A stretch of DNA of 51,777 nucleotides from an uncultured Candidatus Saccharibacteria bacterium (GCA_964483915.1 CAZADL010000003.1:1-51777); one strand, 5' to 3'; shown: positions 7,869 through 35,882, counted from the first letter of the stretch. Translations and numbers: made by a program. The notes: a model not told the origin generated them from the letters alone.

Positions 7869-8777
7869 CTAGTTCTTGAGATAACGCCGGACCGCGATAA
7901 AACTGGAGAATGCGCCGAGCACGACACCGAAGAGCAGGTTATAGAGAAAGAGCGAGAAGAAGTGGGACAAGAAATAATGGAAAAGATTCATCCCGGGGAT
8001 GAAGACATTGAGGTACGGATCCACAACAAAAATAATAGGCGTGGAAATCACGAGCGCGAGAATGGCGGCGATCGCGCCACAGAGCGTTCCTTCCACAACG
8101 TATGGCCCGCGCACGAGCGCGTTTGAAGCTCCCACGACACGCATCACCCCGATTTCTTCGCGGTTTGAATAGATCGCAAGCCGGATCGTGTTGAAAACAA
8201 CCAGTCCCGCAAGAAAAGCGAATACGATCATCACGATCGCCCCGCCGACCTCCACGGTCCGAACGATGCGTGCCAAACGGTCAATGACGCTTTGGTTCTG
8301 GGTATAGCTCACTGAATCGATATACTGCGAAAGATCGCTGGAGTTCAGGTAATCGGCAATGGCGCCGTACTGGCTTGGATTTTTTGCTTTGACATTCAGG
8401 GAAGCCTCGAGCGGATTGGAATCGAGCTCGTTCACCGCCTGCGTAATGGTCGTATCTTGGGCGTGATTTTGTTTGAACGTGGCGAGTGCCTGATCCCGCG
8501 AGATATAGTTCACGCTCTGCACTTCCGGCAACCCTCCAAGCGATTGCTGGATGCTTAAAATCTCGTCCTCGGGCGTATTGGTGTTGAAATAGACGCTGAT
8601 GTCGATCTTATCTTCAATGGACGCGGCTGCGCGGCTCGTCACGACGCCGAAGAAAATAAGCCATGCAAAAACGAGCAGGGCAAGCGTCATAATGATAACC
8701 GTGACCGTTGTGAGCCAGCCGTTCCGCCAAAAATTCTTGAAGCCGAAATGGAAAATTCTGGAGATAATGGTAAACAT
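7869..8777 (-). CDS. ftsX: Cell-division ABC transporter permease FtsX
   Basis: The 302-aa ORF has one TM helix, a periplasmic domain and three C-terminal TM helices. It lies directly downstream of ftsE. Confidence 0.85.
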   Translation of the reverse strand: MFTIISRIFHFGFKNFWRNGWLTTVTVIIMTLALLVFAWLIFFGVVTSRAAASIEDKIDISVYFNTNTPEDEILSIQQSLGGLPEVQSVNYISRDQALATFKQNHAQDTTITQAVNELDSNPLEASLNVKAKNPSQYGAIADYLNSSDLSQYIDSVSYTQNQSVIDRLARIVRTVEVGGAIVMIVFAFLAGLVVFNTIRLAIYSNREEIGVMRVVGASNALVRGPYVVEGTLCGAIAAILALVISTPIIFVVDPYLNVFIPGMNLFHYFLSHFFSLFLYNLLFGVVLGAFSSFIAVRRYLKN

Positions 8778-8783
8778 AGTTGT

Positions 8784-9470
8784 TTATACTAGTATATACT
8801 TTCCTTTTTCTTCGTCGCGGACGATCCTGCCGCGGTCAAGCGTTATCACGCGGCGCTCCAAGCTGTTGATGACTTCTTTGTCGTGTGTCGCGAGAAGCAC
8901 CGTCGTGCCGAGTTCGTTGATCTTTTCAAGCAGTTTGATGATCTCAAACGTGTGAAACGGGTCAAGGTTGCCGGTCGGTTCGTCGGCAATCACGACCTCC
9001 GGGCGATGAACCATCGCGCGCGCGATCGCGACCCGTTGGCGCTCGCCGCCGGAAAGCTGGTGCGGAAAATTTTTCATTTTGTCGCCGAGGCCGACCATGT
9101 CGAGCACCTGTGGCACCAATTCCTCGATCTCACGCTGGGGACGGCCGGAAACTTCGAGCGCGAACGCGACGTTCTCATAGGCGTTCTTGGTGGGCAAGAG
9201 CCGAAAATCCTGAAAAACGACGCCGATATGCCGCCGGAACGAAGGAAGTTCTTTATCGAGCAACTTATTAACCTCATACTGGCCGAAGAAAACGCGTCCC
9301 CTGGTCGGTTTGTCCTCCCCGATCAAAAGCTTGATAACCGTGGACTTGCCGGCTCCGGAACGCCCTGCAAGGGAAACAAATTCTCCAGGATTCACTTCAA
9401 AGGTGACGTCCTCGAGCGCCGTCTGTTCTCCGCCGTTAAATTTTTTCGAAACTCCTTGAAAAACGATCAT
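8784..9470 (-). CDS. ftsE: Cell-division ATP-binding protein FtsE
   Basis: It has Walker A GRSGAGKST, signature LSGGERQR and Walker B VVIADEPT. The start is set at MIVFQGV. Confidence 0.85.
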   Translation of the reverse strand: MIVFQGVSKKFNGGEQTALEDVTFEVNPGEFVSLAGRSGAGKSTVIKLLIGEDKPTRGRVFFGQYEVNKLLDKELPSFRRHIGVVFQDFRLLPTKNAYENVAFALEVSGRPQREIEELVPQVLDMVGLGDKMKNFPHQLSGGERQRVAIARAMVHRPEVVIADEPTGNLDPFHTFEIIKLLEKINELGTTVLLATHDKEVINSLERRVITLDRGRIVRDEEKGKYILV

Positions 9471-9628
9471 AACGATACGTATATCGTACCACGCTCTTTC
9501 TCGGTTTTCAATATGCCAGAAATAAAAAGCGGGTTCCAAAGAAATCTTGGAGCCCGTTAAGAGCTATATTCATCGAAAAAAAACTATTTCTTGCGCTTCT
9601 TGGGGCGCGTCCACCATTCTTTGAGGAG

Positions 9629-9877: not shown

Positions 9878-9998
9878 CCGTTACCTTTCTAATCTAATGG
9901 ATTTGAACTGCCTCCATTATTACCGAACTTGCAAAAGAATACAAACGGGAACACATGTTCATAACCCGAGCTTGGTGAATAATGCAATGCATTTTTCT

Positions 9999-10076
9999 GT
10001 CATTCCCGCGCAGGCGGGAATCCAGATTCATTGGATTCCTGGATTCCGGATAGCCCTGCTGGGCTTCCGGAATGAC
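9999..10076. repeat. Bipartite palindromic element (GTCATTCC family)
   Basis: The unit reads GTCATTCCCGCGCAGGCGGGAATCCAG ... CTGGATTCCGGA-loop-TCCGGAATGAC. The termini GTCATTCC/GGAATGAC are inverted repeats. Confidence 0.7.
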
Positions 10077-10141
10077 AATATTCACCAAGCTCAACCCAAC
10101 AACTTGAAAATATATCCTCTTCCTTTTAGGATAAGGGCATC

Positions 10142-10364
10142 GCGCGCTTAGCTCAGTGGTGGAGGACAAAACGAACATCTCGTTTTGTCCGTTTACATCC
10201 CACCGGATTGCCAATATTATTTAAAATATCGGACGGTTAGCTCAGTGGTAGAGCGCTTCGTTTACACCGAAGGGGTCGCTGGTTCGATCCCAGCACCGTC
10301 CACATAGCGAAAATCCGGCGGGATACCGAGTAGGTCCGGGGTCCAATCCCTCGAGCGCGCACCA
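10142..10364 (+). other. Split or disrupted tRNA-like gene bracketing tRNA-Val
   Basis: The 5' part is GCGCGCT-TA-GCTCAGTGGTGGAG (acceptor strand plus D arm). The 3' part is AGGTC-CGGGG-TCCAATC-CCTCG-AGCGCGC-A-CCA, so the acceptor pairing is 7/7. No canonical anticodon arm was found. There is an 11-bp hairpin at 10164-10190, and a 13-bp helix (10197-10209 with 10312-10324) encloses tRNA-Val. Confidence 0.4.
10231..10302 (+). tRNA. tRNA-Val (anticodon TAC)
   Basis: The fold is GGACGGT-TA-GCTC-AGTGGTA-GAGC-G-CTTCG-TTTACAC-CGAAG-GGGTC-GCTGG-TTCGATC-CCAGC-ACCGTCC-A. Confidence 0.9.
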
Positions 10365-10375
10365 CCGAAATAATT

Positions 10376-11431
10376 TCACATCGTTCGCGACACGAAGAAA
10401 ATGACGAGGCCAAGCGCGACGAAGATTGCGGAAATGATCCAAAAGCGCATCGTTACCTGAGATTCGGGCCACCCGAGGGCCTCAAAATGATGATGGATCG
10501 GCGTCGAGCGGAATATCTTCTTCCCGTGGCGTAATTTTTTGGAAGCAACTTGGATGATAACCGAGAGCGACTCAAAAACCAGAATCACCGCGAAAAACGG
10601 CAGAAGGAGCGCCGTGTTCGTGAGCATGGCGACGACCCCGATCGTGATGCCGAGGGACATGGAACCCGTGTCCCCCATCATAAACTTCGCCGGATAAATG
10701 TTGCTCCAAAGGAATGCGAGGAGCGCTCCAATCATGATGCCGCAGAACGCCGCGAGGTCATAGCGGTGGAGCGCGAAAGCAACGGTGGCAAGCGCGAGAA
10801 ACGTAAAAAGTGAGACGCCGCCCAAAAGCCCGTCCAAGCCATCGGTTTCGTTCGCGGAGAATGCCGACGCGAAAATGATAAAAACGAAAATAGGGACATA
10901 CCAGACACTCACTTCAACGTTGCCGAAGAAGGGCACGTTCAAAACATCCCACCCGAGGCGAAAATAGAACCACCAGGCGCCGACCAAAGCCAGCCCCGCG
11001 TAAACGACAGATTTATATTTGACTCGGAGGCCGCCTCCCGGCGCGCCGCCAACGTGGAGCACGCCAAACCAATCATCAATGAACCCGAGGATCGCCGCGA
11101 TCGCGAGAGCCGCAAGCGGCAGATAGGTCTCCGGACGGCTGATGAAATTGAACCAGTGCCACGTGCCGTCAAAAAAAAGGCTCATGATGCCGAAGAACGC
11201 CGCAAGTATAAAAACGGTTCCCCAAATAACGACCCCCGCCGCGGTCGGCACTCCTTCCTTGTTTTTGTGCAATGCGTAGAACACCGGCGCCTCCTTGGCT
11301 TCGCGCAGATGTTTTCCGAACCGATATTTTTTGAGCACCCGAAACCAGATCGGCGTGAGAATGAGCGCCACGACGAACGATATCGTAGTCAGGATGATGA
11401 TCCTTACCGTTTCGGCAATGATGGGGTTCAT
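10376..11431 (-). CDS. mraY: Phospho-N-acetylmuramoyl-pentapeptide transferase
   Basis: A polytopic membrane protein with NETDGLDGL, GDTGS and the HHHFE motif. Confidence 0.9.
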   Translation of the reverse strand: MNPIIAETVRIIILTTISFVVALILTPIWFRVLKKYRFGKHLREAKEAPVFYALHKNKEGVPTAAGVVIWGTVFILAAFFGIMSLFFDGTWHWFNFISRPETYLPLAALAIAAILGFIDDWFGVLHVGGAPGGGLRVKYKSVVYAGLALVGAWWFYFRLGWDVLNVPFFGNVEVSVWYVPIFVFIIFASAFSANETDGLDGLLGGVSLFTFLALATVAFALHRYDLAAFCGIMIGALLAFLWSNIYPAKFMMGDTGSMSLGITIGVVAMLTNTALLLPFFAVILVFESLSVIIQVASKKLRHGKKIFRSTPIHHHFEALGWPESQVTMRFWIISAIFVALGLVIFFVSRTM

Positions 11432-12519
11432 ACTCTGAAATTTTCCGTAAACCAGTTATAGAGCGTTTGCGTATCCGCGAACCGCGTGCCGTCATCCGTC
11501 CCAAGCACGATGACGATGACCGGATGCCCTCCGTAAGAAAAAATGGAAAGGAGATTTCCGTTCGCTTGATCCGTATAACCGGTTTTTCCCCCGATGAAAT
11601 CCGCTTCGCCGGCAAACTCGTTGATGTTTTCCACAGCTACCCGATTTCCCGAGCTGATCTCGGTAACCGTGGCCACGGGCGTCCGCGTAACCGTAAGTAT
11701 CTTTGGATAATCGTCGTAAATCTTTTGCGCAAGGAGCACGAGATCGGCCGCGGTCGACTGGCTTCCGATCGCAAGGCCCGACGGATCCACATAGTGGGTG
11801 TCGACCATTCCCCACGCCGCCGCCCGCGCATTCATCTCGGTTATAAATTGTGTCCGGCCGTAGGCACTCGCAAGGGCTTCCGCGGCAACGTTTGACGACG
11901 GCAGGAGAAGGATTTTCAAAAGATCGGCGACGGTGTACGTATCGCCGATACGGAGCGTCTTTTCTGAAGGATCGGCATTAAAAGCTTCCTTGGTGATCGT
12001 TATTTTTTGAGCAGAACTCAGTTTATCAAGCGCCACGGTCGCCGTCATAAGTTTTGTGATAGAAGCGAGTGGCCAGCGTTCTGCCACATTCTCGCTCATA
12101 AAGCGCGCGCCGCTCGCAAGATCTGCAACAAGCGCTACTTCCACCGCGAGAGAGGGCGACGGAGCGTCGTGGACGCGGGAAAAGGTGGAATTCGCAACGT
12201 TCCCCACGAGGGCGACCGAGACGGCGCCCGTCACGATCGGCGCCGATGATTTTGTCGGCAAGGTCTCTGAAACAGCCCCGGCGCGTGCCGCATTGCTCGC
12301 TCCATCTGCGGGCGACGAAGAGGTTTCTCTCTGGGAAACAACATCCAAAGAAAGCGCAGGGAGAACAAAACGTGGGACCGCGCTGGAGGAAGAAGCCGCG
12401 GCCGCACCCATACTGCCCGTGGCGACGAAATACAGGTGCGGATACACCGCGCGCGAAAAAAGCGCGATAACCACCATAACTCCCACGAAAGCTATTTTGC
12501 CGGAATAATTTTTGGTCAT
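11428..12519 (-). CDS. D-alanyl-D-alanine carboxypeptidase (PBP5-like serine hydrolase)
   Basis: The SITK (SxxK), SSN (SxN) and KTGYT (KTG) motifs occur in order, after an N-terminal TM/signal region and a Ser/Ala-rich linker. Confidence 0.8.
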   Translation of the reverse strand: MTKNYSGKIAFVGVMVVIALFSRAVYPHLYFVATGSMGAAAASSSSAVPRFVLPALSLDVVSQRETSSSPADGASNAARAGAVSETLPTKSSAPIVTGAVSVALVGNVANSTFSRVHDAPSPSLAVEVALVADLASGARFMSENVAERWPLASITKLMTATVALDKLSSAQKITITKEAFNADPSEKTLRIGDTYTVADLLKILLLPSSNVAAEALASAYGRTQFITEMNARAAAWGMVDTHYVDPSGLAIGSQSTAADLVLLAQKIYDDYPKILTVTRTPVATVTEISSGNRVAVENINEFAGEADFIGGKTGYTDQANGNLLSIFSYGGHPVIVIVLGTDDGTRFADTQTLYNWFTENFRV

Positions 12520-32911: not shown

Positions 32912-33018
32912 GTCATTCCCGCGCACGCGGGAATCCAGATTTTTTATTCTTTCTCTTTCATTGTATGAGTTTCCGCTTCTTTTTCAAAGCACTGGATCCC
33001 TGCCTCCACGGGGCTGAC
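32912..33018. repeat. Bipartite palindromic element (GTCATTCC family)
   Basis: The unit reads GTCATTCCCGCGCACGCGGGAATCCAG ... CTGGATCCCTGCCTCCACGGGGCTGAC. It overlaps the last codons of the Mur ligase ORF. Confidence 0.65.
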
Positions 33019-35805: not shown

Positions 35806-35882
35806 GTCATTCCCGCGCATGCGGGAACCCAGGTTGTTATCCCTTTCATAAAACACTGGATCCCCGCCTTCGCGGGGATGAC
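35806..35882. repeat. Bipartite palindromic element (GTCATTCC family)
   Basis: The unit reads GTCATTCCCGCGCATGCGGGAACCCAG ... CTGGATCCCCGCCTTCGCGGGGATGAC. Confidence 0.7.

Follow-up and report, generated by a model that had tools for sequence, protein, structure and literature searches.

Layout of the tRNA-Val locus

The window, i.e., the whole 51,777-nucleotide stretch of DNA that was analysed, is contig C3 of genome G000, a draft of 57 contigs that totals 755 kb and is 97% complete. G000 is an ultra-small bacterium of the CPR/Patescibacteria type and not an archaeon; it encodes a tmRNA, and the genomes of its relatives all measure 0.5-1.3 Mb. Among the genomes used for comparison, G001, G003 and G004 belong to the same genus, and G019 and G023 represent other genera.

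The features of the locus are collected in Table 1. An intact tRNA-Val(UAC) gene (the inner gene) is nested here between the 5' and 3' parts of a second tRNA gene (the outer gene), the two ends of which remain complementary, GCGCGCT (10142-10148) pairing at all seven positions with AGCGCGC (10354-10360), beyond which lie the discriminator A and a CCA encoded at 10362-10364. These outer strands, the CCA, the perfect 11-bp hairpin, the 13-bp helix that closes over the inner gene, and the inner tRNA-Val(TAC) itself had all been described in an earlier note on this DNA, and each was indeed found in its place. The octamer CGTTTACA (10190-10197), which the same note had treated as a further element resembling the anticodon-loop region of tRNA-Val, is present and does match that region of the inner tRNA, where its second copy lies at 10259-10266; however, it is not a separate element, but the end of the outer anticodon stem together with the loop. 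Similarly, the outer anticodon arm is, as had been noticed, not canonical as found, but it does exist, and was missed because a palindromic insertion interrupts it. The 13-bp helix (10197-10209 with 10312-10324) contains a single A-C mismatch, and by a binomial estimate the chance of 12/13 ungapped complementarity between flanks of 34 and 22 nucleotides is ~1e-4. An Rfam search of positions 9900-10600 at E<=10 returned the inner tRNA and weak unrelated matches, with no intron family among them, and no ORF was found inside the 128-bp insert.

Table 1. Positions of the features at the nested tRNA-Val locus, and of REP-like hairpins, in the window.
Feature	Position	Strand	Remarks
Promoter-like site, outer tRNA-Val	10104..10132	+	TTGAAA-N17-TAGGAT, 9/12 match; ends 9 nt before outer 5' end
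Outer tRNA-Val(UAC), 5' part, positions 1-36	10142..10196	+	Acceptor strand, D arm, interrupted anticodon stem, anticodon loop TTTAC; 96% to G001 over 10142-10164
Perfect 11-bp palindromic hairpin, GGACAAAACGA-ACATC-TCGTTTTGTCC	10164..10190	+	Arms 10164-10174 and 10180-10190
Inserted cassette, 128 bp, between outer C36 and A37	10197..10324	+	Versus uninterrupted G001 gene
Left terminal inverted repeat, ATCCCACCGGATT	10197..10209	+	12/13 complementary to right repeat
Cassette leader, 21 nt	10210..10230	+	Includes TATTAT (10215-10220)
Inner intact tRNA-Val(UAC), no encoded CCA	10231..10302	+	ARAGORN call; Rfam RF00005, 71 bits
Cassette trailer CATAGCGAA, 9 nt, then right inverted repeat AATCCGGCGGGAT (10312-10324)	10303..10324	+	
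Outer tRNA-Val(UAC), 3' part, positions 37-73 and encoded CCA	10325..10364	+	Anticodon stem 3' strand, variable region, T arm (G57A at 10345), acceptor 3' strand; 98% to G001, 40 nt
REP-like hairpins within the window	10002-10021, 32915-32934, 35810-35827, 35860-35879		

The uninterrupted gene and the state of the outer gene

In the sister genome G001, an uninterrupted gene of 75 nucleotides (GCGCGCTTAGCTCAGTGGTAGAGCGACTCGTTTACACCGAGTAGGTCCGGGGTCCGATCCCTCGAGCGCGCACCA) was found, which ARAGORN identified as tRNA-Val(tac). The outer 3' part matched it with an E value of 4.9e-13 and the outer 5' part (10142-10164) with an E value of 8e-4, and the two halves, when joined, were 94.5% identical to it. 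This match of the outer parts to an intact tRNA-Val(UAC) of a sister genome is a stronger argument against chance than the binomial estimate given above, and on such similarity the outer tRNA-like molecule can be identified as a tRNA-Val(UAC) gene of the resident type. The window genes at 7870-9486 and 10374-11554, flanking tRNA-Val on both sides, are syntenic with G001:C6 and G004:C16. Since the intact tRNA of G001 lies at the syntenic locus, G001 presents the orthologous empty site, of which G000 carries the filled allele. Across the insertion point, G001 reads GCGCGCTTAGCTCAGTGGTAGAGCGACTCGTTTAC directly followed by ACCGAGTAGG, and the flanks in the window, ...CGTTTAC and ACCGAGT..., sum exactly to the G001 sequence, with target bases neither lost nor duplicated; therefore, 10197-10324 is an insertion between C36 and A37, bounded by the inverted repeat.

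The inner gene is of a different type. Its identity was 70.8% to the joined outer halves and 75.0% to the resident gene of G001, and 87.7% and 86.1%, respectively, to the tRNA-Val(UAC) of G023 and G019, i.e., of other genera. G001 has one tRNA-Val(UAC) gene, the second strong match there being tRNA-Val(CAC), and the only intact tRNA-Val(UAC) in G000 is the inner gene. By these comparisons the inner gene is foreign, and since a gene of foreign type is the only intact tRNA-Val(UAC) of this genome, the imported allele would have replaced the resident one. The 28-mer of the inner T arm and acceptor was located in five CPR genomes with a tRNA-Val that shares this 3' part, in which the arms of the cassette were absent; none of these five was identified as the donor, and the same 28-mer had no match in viral contigs.

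The outer gene carries several lesions. The palindrome adds ~20 nucleotides (10168-10187) to the outer anticodon stem, on its 5' side, with arms that reuse the native tRNA bases GAC and TCGTTT; the hairpin as a whole is absent from the G001 orthologue and occurs once in G000. The other differences from G001 are a missing C25, A21G (10161), and G57A in the T loop; an A at tRNA position 21 is near-universally conserved. When the cassette was removed in silico, ARAGORN recognized no valid outer tRNA-Val, and when the apex of the hairpin was removed as well, the only cloverleaf that it returned was malformed, the D stem being mispaired and the anticodon loop 6 nt long. It is to be noted that the T loop, which the earlier note had considered atypical, does not belong in this list: it reads TCCAATC in the outer gene and TCCGATC in G001, and C55 instead of U55 (TCCGA) is found in 6/40 tRNAs of G000, so that it is a variant typical of the lineage and not itself a defect. 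Judged from the DNA, the outer gene is in all probability dead, i.e., a pseudogene and a decaying shell, not a split tRNA.

Two other genomes with the same synteny, G003 and G004, have a different complete tRNA-Val(UAC) at the locus, of the GGGCGGC... type, and it, too, is flanked by remnants of the outer gene. The upstream remnant, GC(G/A)CGCAA(C/T)GGTAA(G/A)GC, corresponds to the 5' half without TTAGCTC, and the right junction reads ...AAGGGAC/ACCGAGT... as compared to GGGAT/ACCGAGT in the window (common form GGGA-Y/ACCGAGT). Since two distinct inner genes share the right junction, a single site in this gene has been invaded by two different cassettes in members of one genus. Comparison of G003 with G004 shows an inner gene that is identical at 75/75 positions, whereas the outer 3' remnant differs at ~10/36 positions (~28%), and its pairing with the 5' remnant is lost. 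The genus displays three stages, namely the empty site (G001), a fresh insertion (the window), and an old insertion with a decayed shell (G003 and G004). Outer remnants have also decayed in G058; in several relatives the outer halves are still well formed, with 7/7 acceptor pairing in G007 and G059, which could reflect recency, gene conversion, or selection.

Overall, the conservative reading of the earlier note, that a tRNA gene had been destroyed by insertion, is borne out by the intact orthologue at the syntenic site of G001, the outer gene that could not be restored, and the decaying shells of G003 and G004. Of the checks that the note had proposed, the search of sister genomes for an uninterrupted version was successful, and ARAGORN recovered the inner tRNA-Val, and no valid outer tRNA-Val once the inserts had been removed. 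The comparison of sister genomes spoke against a functional outer molecule, the shell having decayed in a pair of genomes that kept every base of the inner gene. The suggestion that the outer molecule might supply a missing isoacceptor did not hold, since its anticodon is the same as that of the inner tRNA (UAC) and it therefore fills no gap in the tRNA set.

Recurrence of the arrangement and alternative readings

At least 10 further nested tRNA loci were found in G000 and its relatives. They comprise nests of tRNA-Val(GAC) in G000:C5, G007, G059, G058 and G003:C46, nests of tRNA-Val(UAC) in G024, G037 and G020, a tRNA-Val(CAC) case in G027, tRNA-Ile(GAU) in G058, and tRNA-Lys(UUU) in G000:C52; in every nest the inner gene is co-oriented with the shell. 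The junction pattern CATTGATCCCNCACC was detected in 22/125 genomes of the family as compared to none for the reversed control, with the proviso that several of its one-mismatch matches fall by chance in coding sequence. The GAC-type nests are without outer positions 36-40, and in any one genome their inner gene is almost the same as the outer one. Extra GC-rich palindromes reside in the D loops of the shells in G059, G037 and G020, the one in the window shell being located in the anticodon stem.

Some of these loci have further features of their own. On the minus strand of G000:C5 (~860-1210) there is a multi-layer tRNA-Val(GAC) locus, broken by runs of N, in which at least two exact copies of the 5' half joined to TCCCGCACCTTTCAGAT, a full tRNA, and at least two copies of CAGGAAAAGGTGCGGGAT joined to the 3' half were recognized; repeated invasion, slippage of a 51-nt unit, or a scaffolding artefact could each have produced this array. 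At G000:C52:113-420, an insert with ACTGTCGG and CCGACAGT at its ends divides the outer tRNA-Lys(UUU) after U35, the outer T loop contains a further insertion, and a 26-nt trailer is common to the inner gene and the outer 3' end; ARAGORN miscalls this inner tRNA-Lys as tRNA-Stop(tta). In G058:C3, the nested tRNA-Ile(GAU), consisting of a 5' half ending in ...CCTGATA, an insert, and a complete tRNA-Ile, lies beside a nested tRNA-Val(GAC), ~150-300 nt downstream of the pattern match. A tRNA-Thr(agt) with a 248-nt intron, reported by ARAGORN at G000:C37:3491-3831, had no tRNA or intron match in Rfam and is probably a false call. ARAGORN also recovered just one CAU tRNA in G000, and neither a tRNA-Asn nor a tRNA-His; those missing may be in gaps or disrupted.

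An assembly artefact was also considered. G000 is a metagenome-assembled draft in 57 contigs, and the related array on C5 has both runs of N and exact repeats, which would agree with an artefact such as a chimera of two strain alleles. Nevertheless, no identical stretch common to the outer and inner genes of the window exceeds 13 contiguous bases, which is too short to deceive an assembler; the sequences of the arms and of the leader are unique; and independent assemblies of other species show the same architecture. We therefore consider an assembly artefact to be extremely unlikely.

The nest could also be a by-product of recombination or replication error among local tRNA-Val genes (gene conversion, unequal crossing-over or fold-back synthesis) rather than the work of a mobile element. 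Such events would suit the GAC-type nests, with their nearly identical inner and outer genes, as well as the C5 array, which could come from slippage of the 51-nt unit of 5' half plus arm, and part of the hairpin at 10164-10190 repeats local tRNA sequence in inverted form. The window, however, offers little room for them: the identity between its inner and outer genes is only 71%, and since G001 has a single tRNA-Val(UAC), there is no local donor; moreover, the insert ends cleanly in an inverted repeat, every target base is retained, and the same junction is occupied in this genus by two different inner alleles. Taken together, local recombination is an improbable source of this nest.

The remaining alternative operates on RNA. 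The insertion lies at or beside position 37/38, the canonical site of tRNA introns, and the earlier note had raised a split or excision-dependent tRNA like that of Nanoarchaeum. One transcript would give rise to two tRNA-Val molecules: RNase P and 3' processing would excise the inner one, and the outer halves, kept in contact by the 13-bp helix and the acceptor stem, would be trimmed and ligated or would serve as a two-piece tRNA. A TCCC/GGGA helix indeed abuts both junctions, the outer acceptor is fully paired and followed by an encoded CCA, the outer halves are well formed in some relatives, and the predicted fold retains the outer acceptor helix, the clamp helix and the hairpin (z -4.85). 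Nonetheless, the means of splicing were not detected: in G000, PF01974 (EndA) had no match at E<=0.1, with control matches in four archaea, and PF01139 (RtcB) had none either, as opposed to matches in 10/14 control genomes. Direct reading of the junctions for a 3-nt bulge, a 4-bp helix and a second 3-nt bulge disclosed no bulge-helix-bulge, and no intron segment near the 3' junction is complementary to exon positions 33-36 (TTAC). On the sense strand, the clamp helix has an A-C and not a G-U mismatch, mismatches of the same kind occur in G003:C46 and G024, and only one of the G-U type was seen among the related helices; although the numbers are small, these types are not what selection at the RNA level would be expected to produce. 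The lesions described above, namely the missing C25, A21G and the 20-nt insertion in the stem, leave no valid cloverleaf after removal of the inserts, and the outer remnants decay in G003, G004 and G058. Furthermore, the GAC-type nests are without outer positions 36-40, and therefore no anticodon loop could be rebuilt from them, and the anticodons of the outer and inner genes of the window are identical. Overall, we regard RNA-level removal of the insert as very unlikely, and the comparison with Nanoarchaeum, set against the decaying sister shells and the lack of EndA and RtcB matches, is not sustained.

Proposed course of events, search for a mover, and known systems

Rather, the locus is most probably a resident tRNA-Val(UAC) gene that has undergone a 'kill and replace' event at the DNA level by a mobile tRNA cassette. 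In the proposed course of events, an ORF-less cassette of 128 bp, consisting of 13-bp inverted repeats, a leader, a foreign tRNA-Val(UAC) and a trailer, would have entered between C36 and A37, inserted at the DNA level by a putative trans-acting enzyme. Since the insert is co-oriented with the resident gene, the inner tRNA would be transcribed from the resident promoter (10104-10132), and possibly from a fusion promoter as well. Ordinary processing of the 5' and 3' ends would then free the inner tRNA, the outer halves serving as leader and trailer to be discarded, and the resident copy, now a pseudogene, would gather damage, i.e., the palindromic insertion, the loss of C25, A21G and G57A.

Upstream of the outer 5' end, G000, G001, G003 and G004 share one promoter layout, the three relatives having been read by eye; in these relatives it consists of TTGGAA-N17-TAGTAT or TAGAAT, 9 nucleotides, and then GC(G/A)CGC. 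This conserved resident promoter fits expression of the inner gene from the putative outer promoter. A second promoter-like site (TTTACA-N17-TATTAT, 10192-10220, 10/12) is formed by fusion of the outer anticodon loop TTTACA (10192-10197) with the TATTAT of the cassette, and is defined by its match to the consensus. A fusion promoter as the general reason for the targeting of tRNA-Val was considered and set aside, as it fits the window but not the other nests that were read by eye. In G003:C28, but not in G004, a ~93-bp insertion with palindromic ends (AACCTGTCTCAAAA...TTTTGAGACAGGTT) lies upstream of the tRNA-Val locus and interrupts the -10 region of this conserved promoter.

The cassette has terminal inverted repeats and lacks coding capacity, and no transposase, integrase or nuclease was found in it or beside it. 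Its arms are single-copy in G000 and do not constitute a dispersed repeat; the arm pattern TCCCACCGGATT-N90-120-AATCCGGYGGGA had no match in the species-representative genomes. A search of metagenome contigs with ACATCCCRCCGGATT gave 120 matches, all attributable to chance, as they had no right arm or tRNA context, and the pattern is too short for such a collection. As the cassette is unique in G000 and unmatched in the genome, metagenome and viral collections, we infer its mobility from the empty site and from analogues.

Such analogues do exist. Intergenic units without a tRNA share the termini of the GAC-type cassettes, TCCC[T/G]CACC.../...GGTG[A/C]GGGA (TCCCTCACC.../...GGTGAGGGA), and each is flanked on either side by one identical four-base sequence (TTGA, TTGA and TTCA). 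One of them, a 136-bp unit with termini TCCCTCACCC and GGGTGAGGGA, lies just upstream of a start codon at G124:C26:~461-600. Comparison of its flanks, ...CATTCA[unit]TTCATATT..., with the empty site of G007 (C5:~213570), ...CATTCATATT..., revealed a 4-bp duplication, TTCA, which marks the unit in G124 as a true DNA insertion; this was the informative pair, the relatives available for the tRNA-less units in G060 and G020 being too diverged. Unlike this unit, the window junction, when compared with G001, has no target-site duplication. No autonomous element or transposase with matching ends was found.

Two kinds of enzymes were considered as possible movers or passengers. G000 contains ~30 REP-like hairpins of the form ATTCC(C/G)GC-N4-GC(G/C)GGAAT, flanked by GTC...CCAG and present in either orientation, and just one gene for a RAYT-like Y1 transposase, at C5:43433-44137 (NCBIfam NF047646, 41 bits, which is below the cut-off). 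Y1 matches were obtained in 22/125 family genomes and in none of the nest-bearing G003, G004, G007, G020, G024, G058 and G059; a RAYT/Y1 enzyme is therefore unsupported as the mover, being absent from most genomes that have nests. Eight small GIY-YIG ORFs were also recorded in G000, three of which adjoin tRNA genes. At G000:C7:24100-24540, an 81-aa GIY-YIG ORF sits between a tRNA-Tyr 5' fragment and a complete tRNA-Tyr, the fragment being 17 nucleotides identical to positions 11-27 and preceded by the hairpin TCCCGCCATGGCGGGA; the two others are beside tRNA-Gln (C17) and tRNA-Trp (C11). No GIY-YIG ORF lies within 1.5 kb of the nested tRNA-Val loci examined, and a GIY-YIG nuclease as a passenger of these nests was discarded, its association in G000 being with other tRNAs only.

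The arrangement resembles several known systems in part. Integrative elements that target tRNA genes (prophages, genomic islands and ICEs) are kilobases in length, encode an integrase, replace the 3' (rarely the 5') part of the gene, and generate direct repeats. As in those cases, the loss to the host is here made good by the incoming DNA, pieces of the old gene are displaced, and the site is in a region, the anticodon or T loop, that such elements often use; in contrast, the present cassette is 128 bp long and ORF-less, brings a whole tRNA, has inverted and not direct repeats, and is flanked by both halves of the old gene. Miniature elements, i.e., MITEs and palindromic elements such as Correia, the Rickettsia palindromic elements and REP/REPIN with RAYT, are likewise short and ORF-less, form hairpins from terminal inverted repeats, and sit inside genes. 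The target-site duplication of the tRNA-less sibling unit in G124 recalls MITEs, and the family of REP-like hairpins together with one RAYT-like gene in G000 recalls REP/REPIN; however, the window cassette is single-copy in its genome and has no target duplication at its junction, and Y1/RAYT genes are missing from most nest-bearing genomes. To our knowledge, no MITE has been reported to carry a functional tRNA that replaces its target.

Archaeal introns with a bulge-helix-bulge (BHB) and the split and tri-split tRNAs of Nanoarchaeum equitans and Caldivirga maquilingensis share with the locus the break near 37/38 and the complementary sequences after the 5' and before the 3' part. The locus differs from them in having no BHB, EndA or RtcB, in forming one transcription unit in a tmRNA-bearing bacterium, in an intervening sequence that is itself a complete tRNA with the same anticodon, and in the defects of the outer gene. 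Group I introns interrupt the anticodon loops of bacterial tRNA-Leu(UAA), fMet, Ile and Arg, and the window similarly has a bacterial tRNA gene interrupted in this loop; nevertheless, no group I core was detected by Rfam, and the 128-nt insert is mostly tRNA, with no apparent self-splicing structure. Lastly, SegB of phage T4 is a free-standing GIY-YIG homing endonuclease gene in a tRNA cluster, associated with non-reciprocal replacement of the tRNA region (PMC2330249). The GIY-YIG ORF between the tRNA-Tyr fragment and the complete tRNA-Tyr of G000 is similar to this type, and filled (G000) and empty (G001) alleles of the same site are reminiscent of homing-endonuclease cassettes, but the tRNA-Val nests examined have no nuclease gene inside or within 1.5 kb. 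In the literature, no description was found of one tRNA gene nested in another in CPR bacteria; the reports that came nearest deal with insertion sequences in rRNA genes of CPR and with T4 SegB (PMC2330249).

Beyond the single locus, and with appreciably less confidence, we would tentatively suggest that the cassette is one of a class of selfish tRNA genes, active and so far undescribed, in CPR bacteria, i.e., small inverted-repeat units that may insert site-specifically into the cognate anticodon loop through a trans-acting enzyme, with the cargo tRNA as the antidote to the damage done, and that may thereby drive rapid horizontal turnover of essential tRNA genes and the build-up of multi-layer nests. 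For annotation, the nests are misleading: G000 shows look-alikes of split tRNAs, one anticodon that was called wrongly, and an intron call that is probably false. Few genes are assumed to be as stable, or as strictly vertical in their inheritance, as essential single-copy tRNA genes, and the locus presents one that appears to have been replaced from within by a foreign allele on a 128-bp cassette. If the cassettes are mobile, each would be a minimal selfish element, the sole cargo of which is the cure for its own insertion, and together they would provide a route for the horizontal exchange of tRNAs in reduced genomes.
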